Positions 4,628 to 57,032 of a stretch of DNA of 64,000 nucleotides are shown piece after piece. The position numbers and the translations under genes are program-made. A model generated the notes under the pieces. It ran no database searches, had not been told where the DNA came from, and saw only the letters and a list, made by a program, of their open reading frames with translations. The DNA comes from Psammoneis japonica. Taxonomy: Eukaryota. Location: contig QPGO01000013.1 of the NCBI GenBank assembly GCA_008632985.1, positions 744,001 through 808,000 of the forward strand, given 5' to 3'. The first letter of the stretch is position 1; the number at the start of each line of letters is the position of its first letter.

Positions 4628-4947
4628 CCTTGATTTGAAAGAAACGTGCCTTTGGCTGTGTCCGTGTTTCGGGTTCCTGTATCATACTAATGCTTGTCTC
4701 CTTCTCGAGCAGAAGAAAATCCGTGTTGAAACTGGTAGATATTACTTTTTTCAAGTTTTCGTGTATCCAACCTGCCATTTGGCTGCATGTGAGTACACTT
4801 TACTCTAGTAGATACTAGATAGAGAGGTCTCAATAGCTCGCAGTTTCCGAACGACTGGACTATCTCTCGTCGAGCGTTAGCAACCAGAATAAATTAGCGT
4901 CACGTCTATTCTCTTTCTGTGGGTATTAACCTCAAACTAATGCAGCG

Positions 4948-5979
4948 TTAAGATTGAGATGAGGCAAGAAGAACTCCTCCCAATAGTAAGACCGCGCCAC
5001 TCATCCAGAACACGGCTATTGTGACACCCAGTTTGATTTCCTTGAAGACATAGATACCAATCAGTCCGCTTACGAGTATTGCGCACTGGTAGATTGGATA
5101 AGCTACGCCATAACCAACAGCGGGAATTGCAACAATGGATAAAAGATTCCCGGTATTCCATAGCAAGCCCGAACACAAGCCGGTTGGCAATGCCTCTCTG
5201 ACGTGAAACTCAGGCATGTCGCCACGACAAAGCGTATGAATATAAAACACAATCGGGGACAGCAGCATGGCGCCAATGCCAAATGAAGGCAGAAATACCA
5301 AGCCCTCTTGTGAAGGAGGGACGAAATGGAGAGGAGCCAAGTTCGAGCCGCCCGTGAATCCTACGGCACACGCCAACAACACACCACGGGTATATCGGTG
5401 TGATGAACTTGAATTTGAATCCCCGAATAATGCTGAAGAGCTATCGTCCTCTGAACTCGTCAGTGGAACATACTCATCACCGCTACTGTTTCTCAACGGT
5501 ATCATTCTTCCAATCTTGTCGCAAAAGACAATCCCAAGCACCCCGACAACCAGCAACACCAACCCAAACACGGACAAAACCGGGTGCGCTGGAACTTCAC
5601 CGAAAATCACTCTACCCCACAAATAAGCAACAATCATGGCTCCTCCACCCCAAATACCCTGGGCAAGGGCAACGCCAATGCAGTCAATAGCGCTAAAGCT
5701 CGCCGCAAGCGAAAGTACCAATAAAAAGCCGCTGACCATTCCAAGCGGGCTAAAGCGAAACTCTGTCCCGGCGGAGGCAGAGTGAACAATTTCAGCATTT
5801 TTCGATAAAAAGGGCAAGACCAACCACGAGGAAAGAAAGACGCCCATGGATACATAAAGCTGGAATACCATGGGGTCGAGGGATAAGGCTGCTATTTTCC
5901 TAGTCTTGAAGAGAGATGCGAAACTACCGTTGAATATCGCACTTCCAACGGCGAAAACAGTTCCAAGAGCAGCCGACAT
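4948..5979 (-). CDS. TMEM144-like DMT-superfamily (sugar) transporter
   Basis: About 10 hydrophobic segments; motifs AIFNGSF, DPMVFQLY, IGVALAQGIW, SGLLWNTGN, VGYGVAYPIYQ, GIYVFKEI. Likely ATG at 5979; intronless. Confidence 0.8.
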   Translation of the reverse strand: MSAALGTVFAVGSAIFNGSFASLFKTRKIAALSLDPMVFQLYVSMGVFLSSWLVLPFLSKNAEIVHSASAGTEFRFSPLGMVSGFLLVLSLAASFSAIDCIGVALAQGIWGGGAMIVAYLWGRVIFGEVPAHPVLSVFGLVLLVVGVLGIVFCDKIGRMIPLRNSSGDEYVPLTSSEDDSSSALFGDSNSSSSHRYTRGVLLACAVGFTGGSNLAPLHFVPPSQEGLVFLPSFGIGAMLLSPIVFYIHTLCRGDMPEFHVREALPTGLCSGLLWNTGNLLSIVAIPAVGYGVAYPIYQCAILVSGLIGIYVFKEIKLGVTIAVFWMSGAVLLLGGVLLASSQS

Positions 5980-6298
5980 AATTATTAGAACCTTGACAAG
6001 AAAGACAAAACTTGATGCAACGACCTTTTCAGTTCGTCGTTTCAAAGTAGAAGTAGCCCAACAAGGCGATCACTTCCCGGATGATATGATGTCCCTTCCC
6101 CTTCAGCAGATAGTTGCGCGTTGATGAGTTGATGAGCATGCAAGACGCGCTCAGAAGGATGTTTTTATTTTGAAAAATTGGCTTCGGCTGGCGCGATTAT
6201 TGTAGAAAAGATGCCAGTGGCTACCGGTACACAAAATTGGGACAGTGAACAGCAAATCTGCACACAACACACCAAAACCGCACTCTCTACTTTCTAGT

Positions 6299-6300
<2 letters not shown>

Positions 6301-6335
<35 letters not shown>
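6301..6335. repeat. (AG)n microsatellite, about 17 units
   Basis: Perfect AG run in the divergent intergenic region upstream of the ceramide synthase. Confidence 0.95.
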
Positions 6336-6337
<2 letters not shown>

Positions 6338-6401
6338 CATTGTTACAACTTAAGCCACTCCTTACGAGTGTTGAGTATGATACACTAGGTCCCTAGGCAA
6401 G

Positions 6402-7403
6402 ATGAACAAATTCACTTTAGCGGTGAGGTCTTACCAAGGTCTTTCTCAAGCTTTTCTTAACAAATTACGTGGCCACGATCCAGCGTTATCGTTGTTGGAG
6501 AGTAATGATTGTTTCTTGGACGGTGAAACAACCCGATTCTATCTGAACTGGACAGATGTAGATGCGGGAGAGTGCGCTGGGACGGACTGGATTGCAATTT
6601 TTATTTTATTTCTAATGGTTCATACAGTCAGTTGGTGGAGCCGATGGCTCGTTTGGGAGCCTGTCGCAAACTGGTTGTCGCGAGAGAATCGCAATTGGGA
6701 CCATGACACATGCAAGAAACTCTCCATGAACATGACAGCTGCTATGTTCTTTACAGTGTCGGGAATATTCGCGCAAAATATCATCTTTGGGAAACCGTGG
6801 CATCAAGACCCATCTCAGTGGAGTCATCCTGTTATCGCCGTCGAACCTGATTTCAAGTTTTACTATTTGCTCTATGCGGCCAGGTTCTTTTCAGATGCAA
6901 TTTCCCTTCCATTTGAGGATAGACCGAGACAGGCGTTCATTGCGAGCTGTATTCATCACTTTGTAACTCTTTCACTGGTGTTTTTGTCAGCTCATTTCGG
7001 CTACAATCGCATAGGTGGCGTCATTATGTCTTTTTTTGACTGGGCAGACCCCCCGCTACTTATCGGCAAGGCGTGCAAATACCTGAGTACCGGCAATGAT
7101 GCCTATCAGCTTGCCGCCAATCGACTCTTTGAAGTGTTCGCCCTTGTCTTCTTCTTGACTCGGATCATTCTTTACAACTATGTTTGCTTCATTGTATGGC
7201 GGGATTTCCAACCCATGTCATCGCCGGTGGGCATTATTTGCTTTGCGTTTCTTGTTGCGCTGGCAGCCTTGCAGACCTACTGGATGGGGTTGATTGTTCA
7301 AGCTGCAATCAGAATGAACGAAAGTGGTGGTAACGTGGAAGATGTCCGAGAAAAAAGAAATCATCGTAGCTGCTGCTTTCGGAGGTTTGACTTAGGAAGG
7401 TAA
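6402..7403 (+). CDS. Ceramide synthase (Lag1/TLC domain)
   Basis: Lag1p motif equivalent HHFVTLSLVFLSAHFGYNRIGGVIMSFFDWADPPLLIGK, plus FKFYYL, FFLTRI and C-terminal YWMGLI...EDVR; multi-pass membrane; intronless. Confidence 0.9.
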   Translation: MNKFTLAVRSYQGLSQAFLNKLRGHDPALSLLESNDCFLDGETTRFYLNWTDVDAGECAGTDWIAIFILFLMVHTVSWWSRWLVWEPVANWLSRENRNWDHDTCKKLSMNMTAAMFFTVSGIFAQNIIFGKPWHQDPSQWSHPVIAVEPDFKFYYLLYAARFFSDAISLPFEDRPRQAFIASCIHHFVTLSLVFLSAHFGYNRIGGVIMSFFDWADPPLLIGKACKYLSTGNDAYQLAANRLFEVFALVFFLTRIILYNYVCFIVWRDFQPMSSPVGIICFAFLVALAALQTYWMGLIVQAAIRMNESGGNVEDVREKRNHRSCCFRRFDLGR

Positions 7404-7542
7404 CAATAATAGAATCTTTTACTAGAGTATAATTCTTGTTGTGATATTTGATGTGACGTACGTGGCGACCGAGCTTTAGACCAGCTATTATGTCCTCGTC
7501 ACACCTCCAAGGAGAAGGTAACTGACGGTGGACTAAGACCTA

Positions 7543-9191
7543 TTACTTCTTTATCATACCACCGTATTCTAACTCACACCACTTGGTCAACACTTGGCCT
7601 ACATAAACGACTTGCGTTGGGGTCATTTCAAGGAGATTCGGCAAATATATGAGACTCTCGTTGATATCCGCTCCGACACACTTCGAGTTGGTATAATCCC
7701 ACGTGGTGTTGATCAAGGCTATCACAAAGTTGTCATTCAAGAATTCGACTAGCTTCTCCCTGCCCCCAACTTCACTAGCAAGCCACGTCAATTCAGAGAT
7801 GCCAAGGTTTTCCTTGTGCTGATGCTGGACTTGTTTTGTCAACCAGGGAAACAACTTTGAGTGAAACTTTTTGGGAGTATGACGGAGCAACAGATCTCGG
7901 TTGGCTTGCTCCTTTATGGCGATGATTGCATACTCGTCTGCTTTGCTCAGTCCATACCTCATTGAGAGTAGGTGAGGTACGGATGGCCGATGACAGAACT
8001 TCTCAACAGCGTGTTCGAATGGGGTAATTGATTTGGTTTTTCGGCTGTGACAATAAAGAGAAGCACTATGGTTAGAAACCACCAGAACACGAGCCCCCTC
8101 AATAAAGCAACAAGTCTCAAAGCTAATGGTAAAGTGTAACACAGTACTTACACTTTCAGGGAGATTGCATAAAACTTGATGTGGCCACCAGCCTGTCCCA
8201 ACAAAAAGTAAGCGGCAAGGGAAACAATATACACCATAAAGAAAGTATTGTGAGAGATCATCAGATGCACCGTCTGCTTCAAGACACTCATGAGTCGGTT
8301 GCCATAGGTGTCAAGGGTGAACCCTTCGTGACGAGCAAGACATTTTTCATAGAGCCTTTGTCCATGCTTTGTAGCACGAAAGGCACCAAAGCCCGCTCCA
8401 ATGCACGAAGGCGTCTTGTCAATGCCACCACTCCACACACAGATATCAGCTAAGGCGTGCCCCTTGTATTGGCCAAAGAGAGATCCGCATTGAACATTAT
8501 CTTCGAAAATTGGAATATCAAAGCGTTTCCCCAACTCAAAGATAGAGTCTTGCTCCAGAGGAACCCCGAATATGTGCATACCCAAAATGAGATCACACTT
8601 CTTGACTAGCTCTGGATCGATATTCTCTAGATCTAAAGTCAAGTCACTCGGCTTAAAATCAATTTCATAGTAATCGATTTCTCCGATACCCGAGTTCTGA
8701 ATGTTTTTCAATAGAGTGTGAAAGGATCCAAAGTGAACCGATGGCAGGCAAATGCGGATCTTTCGCCGACCCGTCCGTTCCTCTGCTTCGTCCAAGAGCG
8801 TCTGGATGACACACAAAAACAGGACACGACACGAATGCGTAATCAACACGTTCGTGTCAGGAGCCGGCTTTAAGATGCTACGAAAGGACTGCTCCACGAC
8901 ATTGACGAGCTTGTCGCGATCCTTGACAAAACAGCCCTGAAGAAAGCACCTGCAGTGATGGATCAAGAGCTCGCTGAACTTGGTGGAAACGCCACAAGCT
9001 GTCACAGGGACGACTCGTACAAGAGAGACCAAACAACGCCAATGAGCTTTAAGAAAGAGGATGCAGCAGGTGCCGAACCCCACCAATGCGCAAGAAATGT
9101 TGAGCGGAAAAGGGTCCAACAGAAAAGCATCCGTCATTTTGCTGCTTGTGTGAATTGCAAGTGCCCTTGATCGTATGGTTGTTCCCTTCAA
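7543..9191 (-). CDS. DegT/DnrJ/EryC1/StrS-like PLP-dependent enzyme with N-terminal hydrophobic segment; intron 8045-8151
   Basis: HIFGVP, PIFEDNVQCG and VWSGGIDKTPSCIGAG resemble fold-type I sugar-aminotransferase PLP motifs (Asp and catalytic Lys present). A GTAAGT...CACAG intron joins ORFs 8148-9191 and 7543-8142 in frame. Confidence 0.7.
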
Positions 9192-9555
9192 CAGACATGT
9201 CAGTATTTCTAGGGAAGAGACAATGCGACTAGCTCGGAACGAGATAGATCTCTCATTTCACTTGAAGTTTGCTGCACGGAGCACCAGCAACGGAACGCAT
9301 CATGGGAAAATTGTGGCGCAATTTTCTGCTTTGGGTATCTATTTTATTCATTCGTTTATACTATTCATTGTTAGATTTGCGCGGGAACATCTTCTGAAAA
9401 AAAGAATACTCAGTATATCGGTACTTGAATATACAGTATGAATAGAACGGAAAACTGAATCAATGGGCACTCACATGCTGTAATACAGTGTCGTAGAGGA
9501 GTCATGTTGCTTCAATGGAATGTAGCACAGGTAAAACGGAGAACGGAGGGCCAGC

Positions 9556-11081
9556 ATGGAGCATTCCAATAATAACAACAATAGCACATTCTCAATTCAA
9601 GATGTGGAGTCTCACTGTAGAGCAAATGACTTTTGGACCGTAATTGACAATGTTGTCTATGACTTGTCGGGATATCGCGACGATCATCCTGGAGGGGTCC
9701 TGATTATGAATGCCGCCGGTGCCGACGCGACGGTTTTGTTTCACCAGTATCACATGTGGGATCCAGAAAAGGCCCAGAAGGTGCTGCGAAAGTTCCGCAT
9801 TGGAGTCTTGAAAAAGGAGGACGATTCCTCTTTTGTTAGTCCCAGTATGGGAGAATTTTGGCACGTGTCGTCTCAGCGGGTCGTTGCTCATTTGAAAAAG
9901 GAGAAAATGGAGCGTCGTCCCTTCTACGCCAAATTGTTGTGGTTTGTTGATTTGGGAACTCTATTTCTCATGTACTGTACGGCACTTACCTTCTTGATCC
10001 TGAAAAGAGACGAACAGCACCACTCTGGCTCATGACGGTTTTTCACCTACTCATTATAAGCATGACCACGCTGAGAGTGACGGGTCAAATGCACGCCAAT
10101 GGGCATAGTCAGTTGTGGCAACCCAAGAGCTCAGCCTGTTGGTTCGCAGAGGTGTTTGGCCTATTCATGGGATTGCCGGGAATGTATGGCTTCTCGTTGC
10201 CTCATCACGATGAAAATGGCCGCCGGCTTCTCAATGAACCCCGGACTATTTCGCAGTACGAACTTCCCGCTGGACGCGGCTTTTCCGAACACACCGCCGT
10301 CCATCACGTTAAGGGAGTTCAGTTGGAAGAAGATCAGTGCCACCTTCAAGCTGCTGCCTTTGGTGTACAGCGCTTGTGCGGGACGGCCCGATACATGTCC
10401 GTGATTCATCGCTTTCAAGCTACCTTTGTTTTTCAGACCGCCCTGAATGTACTTGGAGAATTGGTGGATTGCACCCGTGTGTCTCTCATTCCTCCCCGAC
10501 TTGTTTATGTGGCCAAACACTTGGTCCCGAATGGGGAATATGTACGAAGTTTAGCCATTGTAATTGGATCTTGTGCGGCTCCCTTATCGTCGTGGTGCTA
10601 CCTGGCACTTCCTTGTAGCGGCACGTATGGCTTTGGCTTCTTTATCATGCTGGCTTTGTTGCGTAACTACTTTGGCATGTTCTCATTGCAGGTCTTTTGG
10701 GCGCAACACGTATGGGATTATCCGGTAGTGTCAGAAGCTGAAGTTCATCGAGATTGGGGCCGTTACAATGCCGAATCTAGCTACAGCTGGCAACCGAGCC
10801 GTGCTGATCAATGGCGACACCCATTTTTGTGGGGCAGCCTCAATGGTTCCAGTCCCGCGACGCTGACCTATCACTTGGAACATACCCTATTTCCGGGCTT
10901 GAATTACCACCTCCTGCCGCACATTGCTCCGATTGTGCGTCAAACTTGTCGCGAATTTGGTTGCAAATACCACGCCTTTTCTTCAACGCAAGAGCTGCTG
11001 CAATGTCGTCAACAAAAGTTAAGGCTGTATGCCCATGGTCAACCCAACATTATTCTTGACAATACCAAGAAACGCACATGA
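9556..11081 (+). CDS. Cytochrome b5-fused membrane desaturase (front-end/sphingolipid-type), split by a frameshift near 10000-10035
   Basis: HPGG heme motif in ORF 9556-10035; His boxes HANGH, HTAVHH and HLEHTLFP in the overlapping ORF 10032-11081; no intron signals at the junction. Confidence 0.8.
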
Positions 11082-11416
11082 GGAAACGATCATCACTCTA
11101 CAATTGGTCGTGTAAAGATCCACACAAGATACCTTTCTACGGCAACGCATGTGGTAGTTAAAATAATACTTCTATGCTCTGTTTGCTGCTATGACCCAAG
11201 CCAGGCTGCTAAAAGTAGATTTACAACAGTTTACTCTTTCTTATTTTGTGTATAAATATGTACATAAAAAATGGTGTTTGCCCGGATACGAAGACACAGA
11301 GAACAGAGACAACGGATCTCTGGCCACCGTTGGCAGAAACTATGATGAGACCCGGGCCACAATTTAACCGACAACCACTGTGCATGTGACTTTGTCGCTG
11401 CTGCAATACCCACTGT

Positions 11417-12112
11417 CTACGATGCCCTGCGCTGGGTTGTTTTTGGGCAAGTGCCAAGCGCTTGGTCCCAGAACGTGAAGAACGGCTGCTGAAATGCAAC
11501 AGCTTCCTTTCCAACCTGCATGTGGTGATGACGGTGGCATTCAGCATTGTTGGGAAAGCACGTGAAGGGGTCAAATGGGAGCATGTGTCCGCAGTGGGCC
11601 GACACTGTCTTTGCAGAGGCTGCAGTGGCCAAAAGAGCACTTTCCTCTGCGTGCAGGCTGCAAACCAATGTTGCAAAAATGATGCATCCTGCGTCTGCAA
11701 CGAGCAACTCCCAAAAAGAGTTGTGGAGAGCTGAAAAGGTGAGCGGCTGGCGAAACTTGTGGTGGGCCTTGTGCGTGGTTTCATGCAGCAGCGGCACCGC
11801 ATGCAACGTGCAATGAACAAAGTGCTGGTGCGTGTCAATGGCGACAGCTCCGAGCACCATTCAAAGAAATCTGACCCCATTGCCCTTGGCATGCATGGCA
11901 TCATTGCCAAAGAAGTGTTCTGTGAGAGAATGCATGAGCTGAAGCTGCAAGCACCGGATGATCGCCTCGTTCACGTGCTCATTTGGAGGGTCAGATTTGG
12001 CGATCTTGTGGCGGCGGAAGAGGTCGAAGTGCTGGATGGCCGTGTGCACGCACGAATGTGCCATGTAGGACACAATCGGCCATGACGCTGTCACGAAGCG
12101 AGTGAACGACAT
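11417..12112 (-). pseudogene. SUR2: Sphingoid-base C4-hydroxylase (SUR2/SBH, fatty acid hydroxylase family), hypermutated, in-frame TGA at 11861-11863
   Basis: DTHQHFVHCTLH, HKAHH, KTVSAHCGHMLPFDPF, FPNNAECHRHHH and QPFFTFWD match the Sur2 pattern (DTWQYFxHR..H, HxxHH, KTVDDHCGYxLPxDPF, NNAxYHDxHH, QPFFTFWD). Probable ATG at 12112. Confidence 0.88.
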
Positions 12113-12538
12113 TCTATTGCTGTGTGGGGCAAGTACGAGCACCGGTGGCTGTTCGATTCTCGACAGTGATTGATCACCATTGTACCGTAAGTGTCGACAC
12201 TCTCGCTCACACGCGACTGCAAACGGCAACGACTCTAATTTCCGGTTGAAGTTGAGTACCGCATGTGCAACCCAAGTTTGGCATGCTCTATCAATGGCTT
12301 GCATGTACGTATGATAATAGATACTAATAGTTGTCCGTTGCTTTTGTCTTTTATGCACTCTTGAAGTTTTGGTAAATTTACTTAAATGAAGTATGAGTAG
12401 GGCCATGCTCGCTCTGGCATACTTGAATATGCATGTTCGCCAATTCTTTTATTGTTAGCGATGCCTTGCTGGCAATTGCGTAATCGAAGATAACTTTACA
12501 TACATACGCCGCACACCACATCTACTTCGTTCGCCACC

Positions 12539-15121
12539 ATGTTAAATAGCTTCGATGCCGATGGCCCAAGAACTTGGTCTGTTGAGAAGAAAGAGAACGT
12601 CCATTGTGCTTCTCGTCGTTTTTTGGATGAGAATCGGTGGTATGCTACTTTGGCGTTGAGCCTGGGTATTACCTTTCTCTGCCTACTGTTGGTGTGCATG
12701 TTGCACCAATACCTTAGAATGGTTGTTACTATGTGGGATTGCCTCTTGCACATCAAACTGTGGTTTGCCTCCGGGATTTCCGTGCTCGTTACACTCCTGT
12801 GCTTGTGGAGAGATCGCGCACGCTGCCAAAGGGTCCGCTCATCTTATATCCATCAGAAGAAATTTGCGCTGGTTCTTGCAATTTGTATATCCCCGGTTTC
12901 GATTGTCCAAGAAATTTTCACCCTTTCGTTTCCCTCATTTGCCATCCTGCTGAATCCAGGAGCATGGGGCTCGTTCAAGGTTTATGATCCTGCTCATATC
13001 CAACAGGTTCGTCATTGGTGACAGATAGTTCTTTCTTTCTTTCTTTCTTTGAAGTATTTCCTCATCTGTGATCTTTCCAACGGTTTGCCCTATACAAGGA
13101 TTTGTTGGGAATATGCCTCAACGATGAAGAGATTGAAAACGAAACTGTTCGTAATGACTTATGCCTTTCCGAAGCAAGCTGGAGTTCCTTAAGGTCAGTT
13201 CCATGTCCCAGTGGCGTTTCATCTCACGACAGTGTAGTTTACAGACTCTTCTGACCCCTTTTCTGCTGTACTTAGCTCTGGAGCTCTCTCCATTCGAAGG
13301 TCTCAAGATGTGCAAACTGTGTTCGAGGGTGTTCAATACGCTCGGCAATCCGGTGGTTTGGTCGTAAACATTCTGGCACGTGACACGGCACGTGCCATCA
13401 ATCCTTTGCGTCAAAACATTGAGGGTCTGATGCTATTCTTTTCCAATGTATCAGTTGTGGTTTTTGAGAATGACAGCGAGGATGACACCAGGGAAGCCTT
13501 CAAGAAATGGTCGTCTGAAGCGCAAGGGTATTCTGTTGATTTGATCGAGTGTGAGGAATCGAAGGACTGCATGTTTGGCGACATTCACCGCTACGATACA
13601 GACGATGATAGCTTCGAAAACAGTGTTATCGGGAAAATGGCTTACTATCGCAACAGGGCTCTGTCGTATATACTCAACAAACCCGTGTACCAGGACTACA
13701 GTCACATATTGGTCCTTGACATGGATCTGGCGATCTCCATTTCGCCTCTCGGTGTCCTCCATACGTTGGGATCCAAGCCAGATAATGCCGTGGCGAGTTC
13801 AGGAAGAGCTATCCTTAGAGGGTCCTTTGGAACTCGACGTCTTCCTTACGATATGGTGTCATTTGAACCACAACTAAAGAGAAGTAACAGGTGGCTTGTG
13901 CATCTACACCAAAAGTATTGCGAGGTGATGCCACAAGGGTCTCGATGGAGGAACCTTTGCGAAGACGTAAGTCCCATGAAATCGATGCTAATGTCCATCG
14001 AGGATGCCCATACGGAACTTTATCAGGTACAGTCTGCATATAATGGCGCCGCACTGTATCCGTTGCATGCGATTCGTCAGGCCAAGTATAACACCGGGAG
14101 CTACGGACAGCGCTGCGAACATGTTGGCTTCCACTTATCTCTAGACGAACCTGTCTTCGTCAACTCCAAGTGGAACATGAATTTGAGTCTAGAACGTCCT
14201 CCTGGACCATCCGGGGAACAAGCTTGGACTGACATAACCTATGTTTTGTTGTCGTTAAAGCTTTCATTGCTGGTGCTTGGGCACAGGATACTAAGCCTTT
14301 TTCTAGTGGCATGGTGCACAATCCGGATGCTGTTGGCATGTCTCAGCCAAAACGAAGCTAGGGTGCTGCCCACTACTCATACCTCCACATTTCTTCATTC
14401 TTCTAGTTGGATGACAAGACGAGTATTCGAGCTAGCCTTGGCCTACCCAATTCTCACCTGGATTGCTCGGTTTGTCAATTTGTTGGTAGACGACGTTTTT
14501 TATTATCCTGTTCTCTTTATGGGTTGGTCGGTTTCGACGGGTGGGAGCTGGGGCGAGCCTTGTTTCTTTCAAAGCCTGTTGACACGGACTGGTTGGTGGA
14601 TGGTTACTGAATCAGTTCTAAAGATGATAATTCAGATGCCCCGACCAGTGCACTGTGAGGAACCAACAGTGATTCTCCCCGGCGACCATTTCGCATTTCC
14701 GTCTGGTCACTCCTTTCGTGCCTTTGCACTAGCTCGTGTGCTGGCTCGTGATCCTTTTCTCGGTTCGAAATTGCCGTCTGCAGTTTTTCTGGGATTGCCA
14801 ATGTCCATTGCTTGGGCTCGCGTGGCCCTCGGCAAACATTCAGTGTGCGATGTTGTATTTGGTTCCATTCTGGGAATGATGTTTTCAGATTATTTGGAAC
14901 CGGCTGTTGGCTTGCAGGCACTGTCCAGTAACTTCTGGTGCTGTGTGCTCTTCTTTAGCATAATTGGGATGTTGTGCCTGGTTGACCCATGGATGCCCAT
15001 TTGCAAACAAGTTTGGCAAGTCACGGGTTTGCGGAAGCAAAGCGAAAGACTACTATTTCTCTCTTTGTGTTGTGGTGGCTCTTGGGTTGTTCTGGTTGGT
15101 TCTAGTTTCAGTGGCTGTTGA
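12539..15121 (+). CDS. Membrane protein: N-terminal TM region + GT-A glycosyltransferase (CAP59/GT69-like) + C-terminal PAP2 lipid phosphatase; predicted exons 12539-13006, 13099-13193, 13276-15121
   Basis: GT motifs FENDSEDDT, MAYYRNRAL, VLDMD, SAYNGAALY, CEHVGFH; PAP2 motifs KMIIQMPRP, FPSGHS, ARVALGKHSVCD. Two GT-AG introns give one 803-codon frame; the intron calls are by eye. Confidence 0.8.
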
Positions 15122-18100
15122 ATGCAATGCAATGCGGAACCCATTTTGATAAGAACAAGAACCCATAATTGGTAAATGGTGTGGAAAAAGTTAAATTCCG
15201 TACAAAAATGTCCTTTTTCGGCCAAAATTTTCTTGAACGCCCTGTGCCCTGCACCGGGCTTTGGAATGCCCTCGCCCGTTTCTCTTCACTTTTCACTCAA
15301 AAATCGAAAAGCATCATGTTGACCATGGCAAGTTGCAGCCACCCCTGCAGCACTAACAATGATGGTGACAGAGGGCAACCCAACCAAGAAGAAGAGGATG
15401 GATTGGGAGGGGTGGCGTGAGTCGTCATGATGACTGCAGCGAGGCAGAAGGGGGCGATGCTGCCAATGCCGCCTCACCTCAAGTCATCAACTCCAACCAC
15501 CATTCACCGGGTGCAAGCAACCCAGCAATCTCACAATCACAAGTTGCTGTCAGCCTGTCAAATGAAACAAAGGTCGCTTCATGAGATCATGCAGCCACTC
15601 TGGTGTTGCTCGAAGCAGCTCTGAAGCATGCGAGCAATGTCGTGACAGCCAAGGACACAGAGGCTGATTTGATGTTTGTGGTGGAACTCATCAAATTGTC
15701 CCCAAAACAATGGCAAGATGAGCACTCAAATGGCTGCAAGGTGGGCACAATGAAAAGATTTAGATCTGGCATGATTCAGAGATGCAGAAATCCAAGAGCT
15801 TGACAACATGTTCAGCTCTTTGGTGGAGTCTAAAAAGAGCCATGTCAAAGCAGGAGACAAAGGCAGATCACTGCACAAGTTGAGGTTGTGGCACCTCAAT
15901 GATGATGGCAGCTGCACACATGATGATCTGCCACTCCACTGTGGTGGGCTCTGCAACAACTTTGTCAACTGTGCTGACACAAACACAACAAACGGGAAAG
16001 CAGCAAGAAATGACATTTGCCTGGAATGTGGGCACATGTTGAACAAGAAGAGGAAAGTCTTGTTTCATTGGATGCAAGAGGAGGTTTCAGAAACAGCACA
16101 ATCTGTGTCCTCATTGCACTCTGTGATGTTCTGATTCAATTGAAAACCCCAGGGGCTGAAAATTTGACAAGTTTGTTGCTTTGTGTTTTGAGACAGATGT
16201 GACAAAATCAATGAAACCCAAATGGCAAAGATTTGCTTGACAGCAAGATCCCATCTTTGGTCGCTGTTGAAGTGAGTTGGGGCTCAGCTAACTTGCTTTT
16301 TCTTTGCAAGGTGTCTTCAAATGTGTTGCAAATTCTGCAACCATGACACTGTCCCAACTGAGGGAGAATGCAGTGAACAAGACATCAGTTTTGACATTGT
16401 TGTGATTTGTGACATTGCACCAGAGCTGTGTGAAGTGATGTTCCACCATTGAAGAAGAGAGTGATTTTGAAGAATTTGATGATGCTCCACCTGATGTTGA
16501 GAGTGGAGATTCTGCCCAGAAGAAAAGTGCCAACTTGCACTGCTGCTGACTGCAACAATTGTGCAAGTCAAAACCTGTGCCACTCTTTGGAAGCAACGTT
16601 CATCAGAAATTTCAGTGCAAGACAAGTGGCTCATCACTGTGGAAACTTTTTTACAAGAATTTTGGAGAAGGCTTGAAAAATGTACTCCACTCTCTTTTGA
16701 CTCAAAACAGAGGAGCAAAGGGAATGTGGTGAGTGCCTCATGCCTTCCTTTTGAATTGTTGCCATGGACTCAAGTCCAGTCATTTGTTGAGATTCAAGGC
16801 TGCTGGAAAGCAGTGCTGAAAGGTTGGGGCAATGCAAGTGTCAGCAACCAAGCTGGCAGCCAGATCAATTGCAAACAAAAGGAAGCCAGCTGGCAAAACC
16901 ACAGTTGCCACAAAATGGGTTGCTTTGTTCTCTGATGCTTCTGTGGCTTGAGCATTGTCACTTGCAATCATTGCTCTTTTCAAGCACACAAGGCCTTGGT
17001 GCATTTGTTGGCCCAGTGCATTGGGGTTGCTTGGCCTCAAATTTTGATGAGCTGCAGCTTCCTTCAGAGCCAACCAAAACTTGTGCTGTCAAAAGAATGA
17101 AAGAATTGCCAACTCTTTTTGAACAGGACAACCACTTTTTTCTTGTCTCCAGAGTGCTGCTCCTCTTTTTCCTGCTGGATGCCATGGCTGCACAAAAGAT
17201 GATGATCTTTGACATTGGTGCAAGAAAATTGGAAACTCAAATGTGATGACTGTTGTTGAGTCATGATGCAGACAAGTGCACATGACCTGCTGGCAGAGCA
17301 ACATTTGGTGTCACTTGGTTGGCCATGGCAAAAAGGAGATGGCATTTTTGTGACAAAGGAGGGTGCAGGGCATCAGTTGCTGGTGGCACATTTGAGCCTT
17401 TAGAGTGTCAAATGGGGCTGCTGCAATCATCAGCAACCAATGCCCCCCACCTTCCTTTGTTCTCAAAATCATGACAGAATGACAGCACCATTTTGCAGTT
17501 CATTGTCACATGGCAAAGAAGACCTGAGAGGTCACAAAAATTCGTCATCTGACAGATGGAGGACAGACCAAACATTCAGTCATGAAAAAGGCTGCATTTC
17601 AACCTGTGCAAAATTGTCCCAAGCTGTGGATGTTAAATGTGCACCCATTGGACTTGAGACAACATGCCAGTCCACGTGTTTCTTGAACTTGAGCTTGTGG
17701 TGTGATTGCAGTGCAGCAACTCATGCAAAACATCAGAGCCACATGTTGACACAAAAAACATGTTTTTCTGCTCCAACAGCTGTTCATCCTGAGCTCAGCA
17801 ACTGATGATGCTTTTGGCCTGTGGCACCAGCAAACAAGGCATTGACAAGACTGTTTTTTTTTTTTTCAGTGTGAAAATCCACAATGAGCTCATCATTGAG
17901 AAAGATCATTGTGCACAACATGCCAAATGGTGCTGTGACAGCATGGCACATGATGAGAAGAAACTGCCAAAAAGTGTGCAGAGACTGTGGTGGAAGAAAA
18001 ACTGCAGACAAGGCATGACCGGAGCATGCACAGAAGGATGGTTGGAAAATCCAAGATGTGAGGCTGCCAAGTGGCACACAGTGACTTTTGACAGCTGGAG

Positions 18101-18144
18101 TTGGTTACAGAAAACCCAGAGAAAGCTGTTTTTGTTGACAAAAC

Positions 18145-20278
18145 AGCAAAGACAAAACAAGCCATGAGACTGTTCTGTCCTCACACTTTGTTTTTTTTGT
18201 TTGCAGTTGTTTTGCTACATCTGCAAGATTGGGCTCTGTCATGTGGCGTTGAAGATTGCAGACCTCCAATGGCACTTCTCAGCATGGTCATTGAGTGGCA
18301 GTGACTGCCTCTCTGAGCAATGCCGTGGATGAACAAAAGGTGCAAAAAATGCAGCAGAGTGGAGACAAGAGACTCAGAATCCAGAGCCCTGCACAAGCAT
18401 GGCAGCGCAACAGGCAGTTTTTGGCCTTTTCACTCCCAGCTTCACAAACACTGCTTCAGGGGGACATCCACCATGATTTTGATTGCCTCTTTTCTCTGTG
18501 TTGCAACCACCAATCATGCACGCTGACTTTGGCAAGGGAAGATTCTCCTGAGACATGTGTGTGCAGACTTTTTTGAGTGAAAGTCACTGTTTGTGTTGGA
18601 GCATGAGCCTTGTCTCATGGGTTTTCATGTTGGTGTGGTGCCACAGAATTTGTTGTTTTGTCACATGGGCCATGATGTCAGTGCACTCAGCCTCACTTTT
18701 TTACGTCATTGTCAAGGACAAAGTGAGTTGATTGAATTCTTTGGAAGGTGCATTGTCCCATGTTCAATGAGCTGGCAAACATGCCACACGGTGCAGTGGC
18801 CCAAAAATGAGCAACAAAATTTCTTTTCATGATGGCTGAGAGAGCCACTTTGCAAGATTCAGCATGTGGTCAAAGAGACCAACAAGATGATGAAGATGTG
18901 ATTTGGCACTTCTCCACAAAATGACAGCAACAAAATGAAAGAGCAGCCACATTTTTGGGAACACTCAACATGCAAGTGTGTGCAAAACACACTAAAAAAG
19001 ACCTTTCTTGATCTCACCATGGATTTTTACATTGTCTGCTGAGTTGCAACACTCAACTTTGCCCCACCCCCTGTTCAGATGCAGCAACCCACATTGAAAA
19101 TGAGGCATGTTGTTGACATTGAGCCACAGCTTAGGATTCAATGATCTGAACAGGATCTGCTCTGGTGCATTCAAGGCAGGCAAAGTTTCTTTTTGTGCTG
19201 GAAAAAGATGTTTCACTTTGAATTTTTCAGAGCAGGGATCTTGGCACAAACAAGTCATCATGCACAATTGAGTGCACTTGCCACAGCATCTGTCCATTGT
19301 GGCTCTGATGGCACATTTGTGTGTTTTTCTCATTTCTCAAGTGTGGTTTTTGTGGAGTGTGATCATTGTCTTCCTGTCACATTTCATGGCAACAGCAGCT
19401 GAGTTGCTTGCTGCACCAGGGGAGGGCAACATCTTTGGAGAGGCAAAAAGATGGGGCACAATGCATGAAGGGGGGGGTTCTCCTGCAGAGCTCAGCACTG
19501 CACGCACAACTGGTTGAATGCAGCCAGGCACTGCTGTGTTGCTGTGGCACACAATGACAAAAAACTGAAAAAGGAGCATGTGGAGACTGCAATGAAAAAA
19601 CTTGGTGAAAAGGCATGGCAGCATTCATGGAAGGATGGTGGGAAAATCTGAGATGCAAGGTCAAGTGGCAAGGGCACTTTTGATGGCTGTGGAGTCATTT
19701 TTAGAAAAAAAACAGAGGAGAGCAAAGACAGAACAAATGACCAAACTGTTCTGTCCCTCACACTTTGTTTTCTTGACTGCAGCTGTTGCCATGTCTGCAA
19801 GACAAGACTCTGTTGGATGGCATTGAAGATCACAGACCTCTGGAGGCATTTCTCAGCATGATCATTGAATGGCAGCAACTGTCCATCTGACAAGTGATGC
19901 AGATGAATAAAAGACATGTGCGGCAGAGCGGTGCTTTAAACAAGAGACTCAGAATCCTCCAGAGCCCTGCACAAGCCCTGCAGCACAACATTTTTTGGCC
20001 TTTTCACTCCCAGCTTCAAAACACTGCTTCAGGGGGGTGCTGACTGCAGCAAGGGAAGTTTCTGCTCAAGCATGTGCATGTGGACCTTTTTGAGTGAAAG
20101 ACACTGTTTGTGTTGGAACACATTGGCCCAGTCTCATGGGGTTTTCATGCCAGCACGGTGCCACAGAATTTCTTGTCATCATGTGGGCCATGTTGTCAGA
20201 GTGCTCAGCCCAACTTTTTTGCTTCATCGTCAAGGACAAAGTGAGTTGATCAAATTCTTTGGAAGATGCATTGTCCCA
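18145..20278 (+). repeat. Diverged direct repeat, ~18145-18760 and ~19721-20278
   Basis: Shared blocks in the same order: ctgttctgtcc(c)tcacactttg, caagagactcagaat, ttggccttttcactcccagcttca, gtcaaggacaaagtgagttgat. Confidence 0.85.
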
Positions 20279-20441
20279 TTTTGTGCTCAGATTGTTGAAT
20301 TTTGAGCTTTGTCACCTGGGGCTGGCTTTGAAGAAATTGAAACTGTGGCTCAATGTTGACAACACACCCCATTTTCAATGTGGTGGGTTGCTGCATCTGA
20401 ACAGGGGGCGGGGCAAAATTGAATGTTGCAACTCAGCAGAC
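19035..20441. repeat. Inverted duplication of ~100 bp (19035-19130 minus; 20340-20441 plus)
   Basis: Both copies translate as KLWLNV(N/D)N(M/T)PHFQCG(G)LLHLNRG(W/R)GK(V/I)ECCNSAD on opposite strands. Confidence 0.85.
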
Positions 20442-21532
20442 AAAACCATGTGTGATTGTGCCAGACAACTGGCAATGGTTGGCAAGTTTTGAGGCAGTCT
20501 GTTCAGCCCATTTCCCTGAATGAGACAAGCACTGTGTTGTTTCATGCAACAACATGCAGCCAGTCTTGTTCTGGTTTTGATTCTTCATTTTTTGTGCCTG
20601 CCCACCACCTTTGGTGTTGTCATCAGACTGTCTCCACATTGGCCTGCTTGTCTTAGTGACAAATTTTTCTGAGCCTTCACTTCAATTTTGGTCAAGCAAT
20701 CTGAGGACTTTGTGGTGTTTTCTCTCTGAAAGCAGCGCAGCTCAGATGACCCAGTTTTCTCAGACTCAAGCCTCTCAAAAATGCGAGCATCAGCACTCTA
20801 AATCATGCCAATGCAACCCACTGCCACTTGCTGCCATGTCTTGGTGGTTGTCTTGATGTCTTCTTTTTCTTTGGCAATCTTGCATTTTGTTGCCTCTTTT
20901 CTGCTCATCTTGCCTCCTCTCCTTCTTGTTGCCACCACAATGTTTTTTTGTTCATGTGTGGCCGGCACCACCAAGACAACAAAACCCACAATCAAGGAAC
21001 AAGAAAAAACACAAACACACTGTCACAGCCTTGACACATGGATGCTGTGGCAACCACATGAGTGCACCTGGCCACATGCAAAGATTTCATGATGCCGAGA
21101 CCCCTGCTCTGAAAAATTTTCCAAAACTCAGTGCAGAGGGCAGAAGACAACAGTGCGAGACAGAGAAGAAGCATCAAAATGTCGGGCATGCCGGACCCAG
21201 AGGTGAATTGGGTGAGAGTGACAACATTCGCTGGAACATCTCATCTCTCAAAGTGTGGACTGAAAGACCGAAGTTAGCGGTTTTGTACTAAGAGCTGCAC
21301 ATTTGAAGCCTCAGAGGCAGGTCAAAATGACATGATGACAAGCGTGGGAAATGCGAGCTATTTTTTAAATTAGACCTCAACTGGAACAAGAATGATCATC
21401 AAAGATACGAGATCGATCGGATTATCGCGTTTGATCCAGATCTTTCTGCTTCTTCCAACATCGTCACTTTGCAACAACCGAACAACAAACAACAACTCCA
21501 TAATCAATACGTTGTAGTGCATAAGAATCATC

Positions 21533-22372
21533 ATGAGCAAAAGCATCTTGGTTAGCGGTGGCAACTCTGGCATTGGCCTTGCATTGTGCAAGCTCCTTGC
21601 GACTCAACACGGGTGCCGTGTCTTTCTGGGCTCTCGTTCCGAGCAACGCGGCCATGATGCCGTCAAGAGCATTGAGGAAGCAATTAGTGGATCTCCCAAA
21701 CCGGGCCAAGTGGAATGTGTGCAACTCGATATTACATCCGAAGAATCCGTAAAAGCTGCTGTCGAGACAATCAAGTCGAAAACCAACGGCGATCCTCTGT
21801 ATGCCCTTGTCAACAACGCTGGCGCTGGTTTGAGTCACGGTACTGAACCCAAGACTATTTTAGACACTAATCTGTATGGAACCAAACGTGTTTGCGATGC
21901 TTTCATGGATCTTGTGGATCCCACCGAAGGACGTGTTGTCAATGTCGGTTCTGGAGCTGGACCAATGTACGTTGCAGAATGTGACGTGGAAACGCAGAAG
22001 AAGCTCTGTGATCCCAACGTAGAATGGGCATGGATCGACGAGCACGCCAAGTCGGCTCTTGGATCCGAAGCGGACAAGATGGGAGGATACGGTCTCTCCA
22101 AGGCACTCGTTACTTGCTACACCGCTTGGTTAGCAAAGCAGCACCCTTCAATTACCTACAGTTGCGTTACGCCTGGATTCATTGCAACAAACATTACCAA
22201 GGGATATGGCGCAACCAAGACTCCTGAAGAAGGGGCTGTCCCTTTACTTCACTGTTTATTTGAAAATCTAGACGGTAATGGTTGGTACTATGGATCTGAC
22301 TGTGTTCGTTCGCCTCTCCACGTTCTGAGAAACCCTGGAGAACCGGCATATGACGGGAAATTGCCGTTTTAA
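21533..22372 (+). CDS. Short-chain dehydrogenase/reductase (carbonyl reductase-like)
   Basis: SGGNSGIG Rossmann motif, LVNNAG, catalytic YGLSK, TPGFIAT; intact 279 aa. Confidence 0.92.
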   Translation: MSKSILVSGGNSGIGLALCKLLATQHGCRVFLGSRSEQRGHDAVKSIEEAISGSPKPGQVECVQLDITSEESVKAAVETIKSKTNGDPLYALVNNAGAGLSHGTEPKTILDTNLYGTKRVCDAFMDLVDPTEGRVVNVGSGAGPMYVAECDVETQKKLCDPNVEWAWIDEHAKSALGSEADKMGGYGLSKALVTCYTAWLAKQHPSITYSCVTPGFIATNITKGYGATKTPEEGAVPLLHCLFENLDGNGWYYGSDCVRSPLHVLRNPGEPAYDGKLPF

Positions 22373-49421: not shown

Positions 49422-49707
49422 AGTTCGGTCAGACTCATCTTCGAGAGACGCAACACAAAATACTGTAGTACATTAGCAACTGGCGTTTTGGGTCATGACT
49501 GCTCTTCGTGGTAGTCTCTCGCTTGGGTAGCTTTTTTGCTTTCCCCCAGCAGACTACCCAAAAGTGCGTACTTGAAAAGGTGCTGGTGGGGACTTCAAAC
49601 GGCAACTTAGTGGCTAAAACTTAGAAAGTGAATTCGTGCAGGACGGTATTGACAATCCCAGGAACAGCTCAAGCCAAGTGTAACGTGACAGTTTCTTTCA
49701 CGTGTTC

Positions 49708-52700
49708 ACACAACAGAGGCAACGGCGTGGGCTGGAAACTCTCTTCGTCGCTCACGAAACAATTTGTCATGCGGCTCGATCCGTGAGCCTGTCATGAGAG
49801 TTATTGGCTTAATGCGTGGTTTGGACTTTCAAATGAGGGACAGTACGCGGAAGGGTGAAACTCCATTGGCTGTGTTCAGGGATTTGAACGAATACATTGG
49901 ACAAATTGCACACGAGCACACGTCTGTTTTCAGCTTCTTTCTGCCGGAGTTTGCACCTGAAGGATCTCTATCGAGTGCGTCACTTGTGGCGCCCGAAGCA
50001 CGGATGCTTGACATGCCAAAGAGTATCGACCTTGTCAACGGTTTGCACGGTTTAATTCAATACTACCTCTCTCCTTGTTTCCATGATATGAGAACTGGGC
50101 GTCAGTTTGGTTTTGGCGTTGTTTCCGTCCCTCCGGTGGGCTACGGAGGCTGCCGGGACAACGGGAAGTTTAGCAGAGCTTCAGGAATGTCCATGTATAA
50201 ACCCTCGGGTGAAACTTGCGAAGCAATTGTAGATGAGCTCGCCACTCTTCTGACATCAGGAAGGCTCAGCACCGAGAATAGGAAACATATTGCTGCTGCT
50301 TTCGATGCTGCGGTGATTGACGTTCATTCACGTGCTGGCTTACGTATAGCGCAACAATTGATCACCACGACTGGGGAATACCACACAACCAATACAGTAA
50401 AGCAGACAGCGGAGTCTCTGCCGGAGATCCTACCTCCCCCGCCCAGTGTGAACGAGTTCAAGGCAGTTTTGTTGTTCTCATGCTGGCGGGAGGATGCGAT
50501 TCTTTCAACATGCTCGTTCCCAACGAATGCTCTGCGGATGATGGCGGCGTCGACGCATAGACACATTATGCTGAAAGTCGAAACCCTGCGTATCTCTTGC
50601 CGGAGAACCTTCTTCCAATTGACGCCAGCAGGCAGGTGGGCTGCAGCACCTTTGGTGTCCACGAAGAGCTACCCATTCTTCAAGACCTATACAACGACGG
50701 AGACCCCGTCTTCTTTGCAAACACTGGAGTCTTGGGCAAGAGCTCTACAAAGTCAAACTACAGATTCAATACACTGACGCAAGTGTTTGCTCACAACACT
50801 ATGCAATACGAGACACGAGCTTTAGACGTTTTCAGAGAATCCGCTGGCGCGAGTGTACTGGGACGTTTGACTGACGCACTAGGGAAAAGCGGTGTAACTA
50901 CTGCTTCTACCGCTTTGGATGCAACATCCAGTATCTTGGCTGGAATCCCTGGTCAATCACCAATCCCGTACGTTGTCAGTCAGAATGGGGTCCGCCAATT
51001 CATGCCACAAGATGCAGCCACCATGAGCAGATCCGAAAGGATTACTGCAGTCAAAAACCTCAACAATGCCACTACCCCGGATAGCGGCTTTATGGCCAAG
51101 GCATGGTCAAAATAGTTTGATTGAATCGCTCTTTCAAAATGAAGAGCTCCACGCGGCACTCGAGGGTGCCGAAGTAACTTCCGATTTTTGTGACACCGAG
51201 TTGGGACGGAAATTCGATATTGTTTCAAAGATGATACAGACTCGACACACGCGTGGAACAGATACTGAATTTTTCTTTGTAGAACTGGGCGACTTTGGTA
51301 CGCATTCAGATGTGGAGGTGAATTTGAAGAATTTGTTTAGCATGTTTAACTCTGGCATTCAGAGTCTCGTTAAGGAACTGAAATCCATGGATTTGTGGGA
51401 CAATGTGGTAATAATACGAACGTCGGAATTCGGTCGGACACTCTCTCAAAACTCTGGCGATGGTACGGATCATGCCTGGGGTGGCAACTACTTTATGGCC
51501 GGCGGAGCTGTTAAGGGTGGCAGAATCTTGGGAGAATATCCTTCCGACATGTCTGAGAATAGCGACATTAATGTTGGAAGAGGACACCCCCACAACGTCT
51601 TGAGATCAGATCTGGCCTGGCATTGCGCAATGAACCGGCATCACCAAGGCTGAAGATTTTGACAATATCTGCCCGAATCGCGGCAATTTTGATTCCGTAT
51701 TTACTGCGTTTGATTTGTTTGGGAATACACCTCAAGATCCAATTCCCCAACCCGTTCCCGAAGGCGACGGAGAGACGTCTACACCTGGAGAGCAGCACTG
51801 CCAGCAGCCTGGCGAAAGCCCCTCTCCATCACCCACGGCGTATCCCAGTGCAAACTCTGAATCATCCGCAGTACCCCACATGGTTGTCTCCTTTGCTTCC
51901 AGCATACTGGTCCTTTTGGTCCTGACAGGGATTCAACTAGTCTAGTATCTTTCGGCAAGTGCACATTGGATGCACATTTGTATGAGATAAATTAGTGAAT
52001 AACTTTCGAACGAATAACAACAAGAAGAAGCTGCTACTTCTCAATGGATAGTTCGGAGATTGGAATGCGCTCAACAGACAAAACCCCACACAATTGAGGT
52101 ATTGTAGCTAGCTACTTTAGAATATAGATGGCTCCGATAAACTCCCAGAGGCCTTGTCGTCGGCGTTCTACTACTAGGGTAGTGCCCCGCTATTTCGGCA
52201 AACACTTGAAACTACTCCCTAACAACAAGTGAACGCGACGAATCCATAAAATATGCAGGCGATCATCGCCCAAATAGTCCAACACACATCTTTGACAAGC
52301 CTCGGGGAATACCGTGACGATTACCCCAGCGTTGACCCCCCCTGAAAGAAAAAGAGCAGTGTGGTACGAAAACAGAAACCATGACATCAAAGTAGAAGTA
52401 TGCAACAACATCGCAAGCGCTACGACCGTCATCGTCGTCCACTGACGTACGTACGGAATGAATAACACGCCAATAAAGATTGCTATGCTGTACTTTTAGT
52501 ATTTCTAATTCTATTGTTTTGTTCAAAGCGTGTTTCAAATATTTGAAACACGCCAATATCAAAAGTTGATAGAGATCGGTCGCGTAGGACAACATTTGCC
52601 TAAAAAGCGCCATCAGAAGATGGAGCTCGAGCTTTTACATATCTTCAGGTGACGGGGATGGAGTGGGAAAAGTGCAGCCGGAAAACAACTTACGAGAACA

Positions 52701-56638: not shown

Positions 56639-57032
56639 TGTTGATTTTGTCTTTACGAGTGCAGCGTTTTCATGTTACAGTATTTTAATTTGCGACAGGA
56701 GATGCCCAGATCATTTTTCCCACATCGCTCATCGCTCATTGGCCATTGGAGCTAGCATGAGACACCAGAAAATTTTTTAACCCTGCTTCGTATATGTATG
56801 AATATTCTTTATTTCAACAATTTACGTTGTACGTTCCTTATTTATATTAATTTTCTTTATTACTGAAGTTGTGTATTGATTTTTCATCCTAAACACTGAA
56901 TATGATATTAGATGTAAATATATATTTGCATAATAAATATTAGTATATATAGATGTATACTAATGTTTATTTTGTAAGCCTCGACCTCTGTTTTTCGATT
57001 TTTCGATTTAATTTTTCTGAAGCTCTTCTTCA

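Follow-up and report, generated by a model that had tools for sequence, protein, structure and literature searches.

When six genes from six different families lie side by side in an algal nuclear genome, and several of those families are ones that handle ceramides and other membrane lipids, do the genes serve a common pathway, or have they simply come to rest beside one another? The question is raised by a stretch of 64,000 nucleotides from Psammoneis japonica (assembly GCA_008632985.1, contig QPGO01000013.1, positions 744,001 to 808,000 of the forward strand; hereafter the window), in which positions 4948-15121 carry six adjoining genes, g1 to g6. An original prediction, made without database searches, had read them as a candidate (glyco)sphingolipid biosynthetic cluster comprising a TMEM144-like transporter, a Lag1/TLC ceramide synthase, a DegT-like pyridoxal phosphate (PLP) enzyme, a cytochrome-b5 desaturase, a SUR2-type C4-hydroxylase and a glycosyltransferase-PAP2 fusion. 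Our preferred answer, to which we assign a probability of roughly 45%, is that the locus is a lineage-specific six-gene cluster of endoplasmic reticulum (ER) and Golgi membrane proteins, in a raphid-pennate-diatom-like nuclear genome, that builds or remodels a glycosylated ceramide-type lipid. The physical cluster itself is genuine, partly decayed and probably lineage-specific.

The outline of the locus withstood closer inspection. A Pfam scan of open reading frames (ORFs) places g1 to g6 in six different families, and Pfam, profile and fold evidence bear out both the six original family assignments and the outer coordinates 4948-15121. Nothing recognisable other than g1 to g6 was found within those limits, as had been claimed; the additional ORF at 12539-13021 represents the first exon of g6 rather than a separate gene, since g6-family homologues extend over it in alignments. 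The original prediction had not noticed the stop codon in g5, the frameshift in g4 or the introns of g3 and g6, which are taken up below. A eukaryotic biosynthetic gene cluster requires at least three non-homologous adjoining genes, and six are found here. They are laid out as three divergent pairs, g1/g2, g3/g4 and g5/g6, whose spacers are 422 bp (5980-6401), 418 bp (9138-9555) and 426 bp (12113-12538). The GC content of the window is even (0.43-0.52) and that of the cluster equals that of its flanks, which, together with the introns in g3 and g6, identifies the region as native nuclear DNA. The best relatives of the cluster proteins are found in raphid pennate diatoms (Nitzschia, Bacillariaceae, Amphora, Cylindrotheca and Seminavis) at 40-55% identity. 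Two runs were compared with the window: X1, consisting of read-based contigs, and X2, which is labelled 'DNA?' and is taken here as RNA-like because one of its contigs is spliced and lacks the g3 intron.

At the centre of the proposed pathway stands g2 (6402-7403, plus strand), a single-exon gene for a TLC/Lag1-type protein of 333 amino acids. It matches the Pfam family TLC (PF03798) at 9.9e-30, with 104 bits against a cut-off of 24.6, and a profile built from g2 and 15 homologues finds human CerS6 (3.2e-24) and, less strongly, yeast Lag1/Lac1 (about 1e-9). The catalytic residues of the Lag1p motif are a pair of histidines and downstream aspartates. In g2 the corresponding residues H185, H186, D213 and D216 are invariant across 16 sequences, and its HH and FDxxD fall on HH and D..D in the alignment with human CerS6 and with yeast Lag1. 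On this evidence the product of g2 is a predicted ceramide-synthase-type TLC protein with an intact HH motif. How surprising its neighbours are can be gauged by supposing random gene order in a genome of about 12,000 genes, with a few members in each family, all assumed rather than measured values: a TLC gene that has a desaturase, an FA_hydroxylase and a PAP2 gene no further than three genes away would then be expected well under 1e-5 times per genome. By this rough estimate, chance adjacency of these lipid-enzyme families beside a ceramide synthase is very unlikely.

The second line of evidence comes from g5 (11417-12112, minus strand), a SUR2-like fatty-acid hydroxylase gene of 231 codons with a complete FA_hydroxylase domain (PF04116, 2.2e-17), interrupted by an in-frame TGA at codon 84 (11861-11863). 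Using the read-through translation, with X at the stop, as query in an exhaustive search of 1.84 billion representatives, only three were recovered at E<=1e-30, and the g5 subfamily is known from environmental data only. Among the best 19 representatives, ten were looked up, and the clusters of P0131 and P0133 bear the names sphinganine C4-monooxygenase or sphingosine hydroxylase (fungal), with the cluster of a further relative, P0117, carrying KEGG K04713. As the nearest named relatives are SUR2-type rather than ERG3, ERG25 or FA2H, the SUR2 label seems a reasonable one for g5, taken as it is from source annotations at 35-39% identity. Two environmental relatives of g5 in ENA, P0116 (546 amino acids) and P0267 (608 amino acids), are single proteins that combine FA_hydroxylase with GT25, an arrangement of which we know no report in the literature. 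Such fusions would tie the g5 hydroxylase subfamily to glycosyl transfer, if indirectly.

The stop codon itself lies within coding sequence: P0115 and P0116, both 61% identical to g5, align across it without a break, with Arg and Gln there, and the eight aligned relatives as a whole have Arg (six), Gln (one) or Lys (one) at its position. Since these relatives are continuous over the stop, the TGA is a nonsense change in a coding region and not intronic; a 51-nt intron that would remove it was considered and rejected on the same ground, as homologues align continuously through the segment. Between X1 contig 7 and the window there are six differences inside g5, none of them at the stop; they mark the contig as a separate allele, and this second allele keeps the stop too. 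All nine histidines that are invariant in a nine-sequence alignment are retained in g5, which deviates at 5 of 41 conserved columns, four of the five being Tyr to His. Relatives deviate at between 1 and 14 of these columns, so g5 gives no sign of broad decay, and the stop is read as a probable recent inactivation of an otherwise well-kept copy. As an observation in its own right, the six differences in g5 are the only ones between the window and X1 contig 7 across 10911-14195; they fall within 333 bp (11419-11752), all are transitions, and through one of them the other allele has Gln in place of the natural stop codon.

Glycosyl transfer is brought into the cluster by g6, a plus-strand gene of three exons encoding 802 amino acids. 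Exon 1 (12539-13006) covers the N-terminal membrane region, with homologues aligning to 12635-13006 and a GT donor at 13007; exon 2 (13099-13193) has homologues aligning to 13075-13197, and its splice sites and joined reading fit the consensus CL...LCL.E..W..LS.G.LS; exon 3 (13276-15121) is one uninterrupted ORF with a GT-A domain at about 13268-14340, membrane helices and a PAP2 domain at about 14603-14884. The two introns are short, at 92 and 82 nt. An AlphaFold model of the GT-A domain has a predicted local distance difference test (pLDDT) score of 85.4, and Foldseek matches it best to COLGALT1, Mnn9 and LH3 with a probability of 1.00. The DxD aspartates, D151 and D153, are invariant in 25 sequences. 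No defined glycosyltransferase family, such as CAP59/GT69, could be assigned, CAP59_mtransfer scoring 23.8 bits against a cut-off of 28.8. PAP2 enzymes are marked by a tripartite motif, K..RP, PSGH and SR..H..D; the domain in g6 (PF01569, 3.3e-13) carries KMIIQMPRP, PSGH and RVALGKHSVCD, which fit K..RP, PSGH and R..H..D. Among the relatives of the g6 glycosyltransferase, P0054 carries a HAD hydrolase domain as well; it is a second and independent fusion of this glycosyltransferase family with a domain of a hydrolase family, parallel to the PAP2 fusion.

The remaining lipid-modifying candidate, g4 (9556-11081, plus strand), encodes an N-terminal cytochrome b5 domain (Cyt-b5, 1.9e-19, with its HPGG motif) followed by a divergent FA_desaturase domain whose match is weak but significant (3e-9; 37.4 bits against a cut-off of 29.7), and the His boxes HANGH and HTAVHH are present. 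A 1-nt frameshift near 10012 interrupts the gene as it stands in the window. X1 has a single contig there, and at full depth this contig shows one more A after 10012; with that letter the two frames become one ORF, so the frameshift is probably an assembly error or an allele. Searches of PDB sequences with g4 and g5 were uninformative, and the Protein Atlas returned generic family names only for the two.

Two further genes suggest the handling of sugars. The first, g3, lies on the minus strand and encodes 495 amino acids in two exons: exon 1 (8152-9137), with N-terminal helices and the PLP-binding core, and exon 2 (7543-8044), with a C-terminal domain that aligns to the C-terminal halves of P0045, P0046 and P0048. 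The 107-nt GT..AG intron between them (8045-8151) is exactly the stretch that the spliced X2 contig skips in joining the exons. Pfam DegT scores 19.2 bits with g3 and 19.1 with its homologue L004, both under the cut-off of 19.8, and 21.1 with the homologue L003, which is above it. A profile of the g3 family finds 40 PDB chains at E<=1, and the 27 of these at E<=0.11 are all aminotransferases, the best at 1.4e-7 (DegT-type sugar aminotransferases). Modelling used the homologue P0045, which is 45% identical to g3, in place of the window protein itself: its AlphaFold model (pLDDT 84.9) gives a list of top Foldseek matches in which DegT-family sugar aminotransferases and their close relatives make up the great majority, at a probability of 1.00 and a target TM-score of about 0.65, top folds including 7n63, GDP-perosamine synthase and WecE at 11-16% identity in the structural alignment. 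The family motifs ED.VQ.GS and WSGG.DKTP, the latter with Ser-x4-Lys spacing, are invariant and correspond in g3 to D213, Q216, S236 and K241, within the region that aligns to the PDB aminotransferases; we take D213 and K241 to be the PLP-binding Asp and the Schiff-base Lys. The product of g3 is best described as a predicted divergent, membrane-anchored DegT-fold PLP enzyme resembling sugar aminotransferases. It belongs to an uncharacterised eukaryotic PLP-enzyme family and is scarce: seven matches were found among 5.8 billion protein clusters, all in environmental data, seven metagenome loci encode relatives at 43-46% identity, and none was found in prokaryote genomes (0 of 20 stretches). Bacterial DegT/DnrJ/EryC1/StrS enzymes (WecE, ArnB, perosamine synthase) are like g3 in fold and in their Asp/Gln and Ser-x4-Lys motifs, whereas g3 adds an N-terminal membrane-helix region and a larger C-terminal domain, is eukaryotic, and is known from those seven proteins and seven metagenome loci only. 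The rarity and environmental-only record of g3 and of the g5 subfamily fit accessory genes. At 9127-9132, where g3 begins to be read, roughly half of the X1 depth has one nucleotide deleted at 9127 and one inserted at 9132, a pair that constitutes a compensated frameshift on the other allele.

The second of these genes, g1 (4948-5979, minus strand), encodes a putative sugar transporter of the TMEM144/GlcU type (drug/metabolite transporter superfamily, DMT), 343 amino acids long from the first ATG. It matches Pfam TMEM144 at 1.2e-19 and Sugar_transport at 3.1e-13, and NCBIfam RhaT/GlcU at 2.3e-9, far under the family cut-off. Contigs of X2 match the bodies of five of the six genes: g1 (4832-6042), g2 (6343-7356), g3 (spliced), g4 (9564-10011, 10049-10309 and 10303-11121) and part of g6. 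This suggests that g1, g2, g3, g4 and g6 are transcribed, as far as contigs from one run can tell. No X2 contig covers 11178-13403 (g5 and exons 1 and 2 of g6), and no conclusion is drawn from the gap.

Taking the families, gene models, adjacency, catalytic motifs, stop codon and fusions in relatives as observed, we infer substrates, an order of steps and a common product as follows. A long-chain base would be N-acylated with acyl-CoA by g2, and the base or its acyl chain would be desaturated by g4, with electrons supplied through its own cytochrome b5 domain. Hydroxylation of the base at C4 would formerly have been the task of g5, cut in this strain by the nonsense codon. The GT-A domain of g6 would then add a sugar, and its PAP2 domain may dephosphorylate a lipid phosphate that is either a substrate or a by-product of the glycosyltransferase step. 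The sugar, modified and possibly aminated, would be supplied by g3, with its PLP-dependent DegT fold, and by the sugar-type transporter g1. A bolder version of this scheme, which we regard as distinctly doubtful, is that the locus is the first nuclear sphingolipid-type biosynthetic cluster in a photosynthetic eukaryote, accessory and in the course of being lost in this strain, and that it would make an amino-sugar or otherwise unusual glycosylceramide by means of a ceramide synthase, a b5-desaturase, a C4-hydroxylase, a hitherto undescribed DegT-fold aminotransferase that is eukaryotic and anchored in the membrane, and the unique glycosyltransferase-PAP2 fusion.

A considerable body of observations weighs against a shared ceramide pathway. 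The evidence for a cluster comes from one genome only. The g2 family is widespread in diatoms, with one orthologue each in several sequenced pennates, and g2 may therefore be simply a housekeeping ceramide synthase. The g6 glycosyltransferase likewise belongs to a large multi-copy family that is widespread in diatoms; PAP2 accompanies none of its 65 homologues, and none aligns beyond window position 14428, so that the fusion seems to be peculiar to this genome. In g4 the sequence at the third His box is HLEHT, a departure from the desaturase consensus (Q/H)xxHH. The coding sequence of g5 is not intact, the in-frame TGA standing in both the window and the X1 contig, and its allelic differences are non-synonymous in all six cases listed, as against 3 of 9 in g3, 3 of 6 in g4 and 8 of 13 in g1 (counts of the differences listed, not of all); given the stop, a C4-hydroxylated product is doubtful in this strain. 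Linkage in relatives, examined for g3 alone, is not conserved: those with flanking DNA, from two organisms (L004; and L003, L006 and L007), have unrelated neighbours, among them a ribosomal L27A-type gene (L004) and a proteasome gene (L003, L007), and tblastn of all cluster proteins against the seven g3 metagenome loci matches g3 only, with no TLC or b5-desaturase neighbours. No promoter word of at least 8 nt is common to all three spacers; they have three 7-mers in common, a number reached in 31 of 200 shuffles. The Pfam scan of ORFs found no serine palmitoyltransferase in the window and no ketoreductase in the cluster, the only pointer to an amino-sugar head group is the remote DegT fold predicted for g3, and short-pattern scans of viral contigs yielded no relatives of g2 (0 of 158 stretches), g3 (0 of 30), g4 (0 of 2) or g5 (0 of 40). 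Several of these points, namely the single g2 orthologues of other pennates, the multi-copy origin of the g6 glycosyltransferase, the lost linkage of g3, the lack of a common promoter motif and the break in g5, speak for the main rival, under which the genes are co-located without a common product. The locus would then hold housekeeping or unrelated ER-membrane genes (a general ceramide synthase, a front-end desaturase of the polyunsaturated fatty acid (PUFA) type, a decaying hydroxylase, a Golgi glycosyltransferase fused by chance and a sugar transporter) brought together by local rearrangement or shared chromatin. We consider this somewhat unlikely: by the rough estimate above, with its assumed family sizes, random order is very unlikely to place four lipid-enzyme families beside a ceramide synthase; among relatives, fused proteins link the hydroxylase subfamily with a glycosyltransferase, and the glycosyltransferase family with a hydrolase; and the genes form a regular series of three divergent pairs. 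The ceramide pathway of the original prediction is supported in part, by its enzyme families, the g2 motif and the fusions of relatives, and is weakened by the g5 stop, by the unlinked g3 of two relatives, by the negative searches for viral relatives and for a serine palmitoyltransferase, and by the remoteness of the DegT fold.

If the genes do act together, their product need not be a sphingolipid. An N-acylated amino-sugar lipid or a polyprenyl-phosphate-linked glycan would have g3 aminating a keto-sugar or keto-lipid, the TLC protein N-acylating that amine in place of a sphingoid base, the GT-A domain transferring a sugar and PAP2 recycling a polyprenyl or lipid diphosphate. The nucleotide-sugar aminotransferases WecE, ArnB and perosamine synthase, which the g3 fold matches, would suit such a scheme, as would ArnC and GtrB among the fold matches of the g6 glycosyltransferase and the PAP2 domain's only PDB matches (bacterial LpxE and PgpB) and only NCBIfam hints (undecaprenyl-diphosphate phosphatases, far under cut-off), and the lack of a nearby serine palmitoyltransferase points the same way. 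We nevertheless judge the whole scheme, roles included, improbable, given that g2 has the full ceramide-synthase motif and reaches CerS6 at 3.2e-24, that g5 has sphingoid-base hydroxylases as its closest named relatives, and that the top folds of the glycosyltransferase are COLGALT1 and Mnn9 rather than polyprenyl-phosphate transferases. Far less probable still is an island acquired from a giant virus, in the manner of the coccolithovirus sphingolipid genes, or from a bacterium. The original comparison with the coccolithovirus EhV is sound as to the enzyme set, passages of PMC5371807 naming a serine palmitoyltransferase, a sterol desaturase, an elongation protein and a lipid phosphate phosphatase. 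EhV resembles the cluster in encoding several sphingolipid-type enzymes in one genome, including an FA_hydroxylase-family 'sterol desaturase' and the lipid phosphate phosphatase (PMC5371807), whereas its key enzyme is the serine palmitoyltransferase. That enzyme is missing from the cluster, which contains introns and, beyond the lipid enzymes, genes of the DegT-like, glycosyltransferase and transporter kinds. The g6 glycosyltransferase has distant relatives, at 20-32% identity, on 73 viral-collection contigs (L008-L080), some of them giant-virus genome bins. Against this, not one of the 73 carries another cluster-type gene, and g2, g3, g4 and g5 found no relatives on viral contigs at all, in scans that rest on short patterns and may overlook distant relatives, the EhV genes included. 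For a bacterial source, no prokaryotic relative of g3 was found. Spliceosomal introns in g3 and g6, a GC content equal to that of the flanks and ordinary eukaryotic flanking genes (an M16 peptidase, TRRAP and a DEAD-box helicase) disfavour an island of either kind.

Set among known systems, a glycosylated-ceramide cluster of this composition would be out of the ordinary. Eukaryotic sphingolipid enzymes (Lag1/CerS, SUR2, b5-desaturases and PAP2) share families and motifs with g2, g5, g4 and g6, whereas here PAP2 is fused to a glycosyltransferase, the hydroxylase is short, at 231 amino acids, and interrupted, the desaturase has diverged far (37 bits), and neither a serine palmitoyltransferase nor a ketoreductase is linked. 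Genes of the sphingolipid pathway are normally dispersed in eukaryotes, as in yeast, plants and animals; here they adjoin. Metabolic gene clusters are, to our knowledge, very rare in diatoms, with the domoic-acid cluster as the reference case. Glycosphingolipids govern the outcome of virus-host encounters in coccolithophores, and a cluster centred on a ceramide synthase could point to an algal glycosphingolipid as yet unknown, with the glycosyltransferase-phosphatase and hydroxylase-glycosyltransferase fusions suggesting coupled steps and the broken g5 offering a possible snapshot of cluster decay. The domoic-acid (dab) cluster of Pseudo-nitzschia resembles g1 to g6 in being a small set of non-homologous biosynthetic genes in the nuclear genome of a pennate diatom (PMC12843257); its chemistry (terpene cyclase, dioxygenase, P450) is unrelated and it is experimentally validated, whereas g1 to g6 are known from sequence. 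In the same 2026 review of diatom natural products, gene clusters are mentioned only for domoic and kainic acid, and the words sphingolipid and ceramide are absent (PMC12843257). Literature searches, which reached their sources in part, returned no description of a diatom sphingolipid gene cluster.

The surroundings of the cluster add some minor observations. To its left lie two unrecognised soluble ORFs, and elsewhere the ORFs of the window include the M16 peptidase, a very long TRRAP/Tra1, an ABCG transporter, the DEAD-box helicase and a kinesin. To its right, 6.4 kb (15122-21517) are without a Pfam-recognisable ORF, apart from a weak copia-gag-like match (DUF4219, E 0.011), and may be decayed repeat DNA bounding the cluster. 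Beyond this stretch stands a gene of the short-chain dehydrogenase/reductase (SDR) family (21518-22372, plus strand) that is carbonyl-reductase-like, with menthone reductase and CBR1 as its best PDB matches; it was considered as the missing ketosphinganine reductase and discounted for that likeness and for its distance of 6.4 kb from the cluster. Further along the plus strand, ORFs at 49689-51653 match DUF1501 (7.6e-28) and, weakly, DUF1800, a pair typical of bacteria and hence unusual for a eukaryotic nuclear window. An 882-amino-acid ORF at 57021-59669 (plus strand) combines the galactosyltransferase domains Glyco_transf_7N (2.9e-29) and Glyco_transf_7C (8.3e-20) with, at its C-terminal end, a Sulfotransfer_1 match whose score equals the cut-off, and is a possible glycosyltransferase-sulfotransferase fusion.

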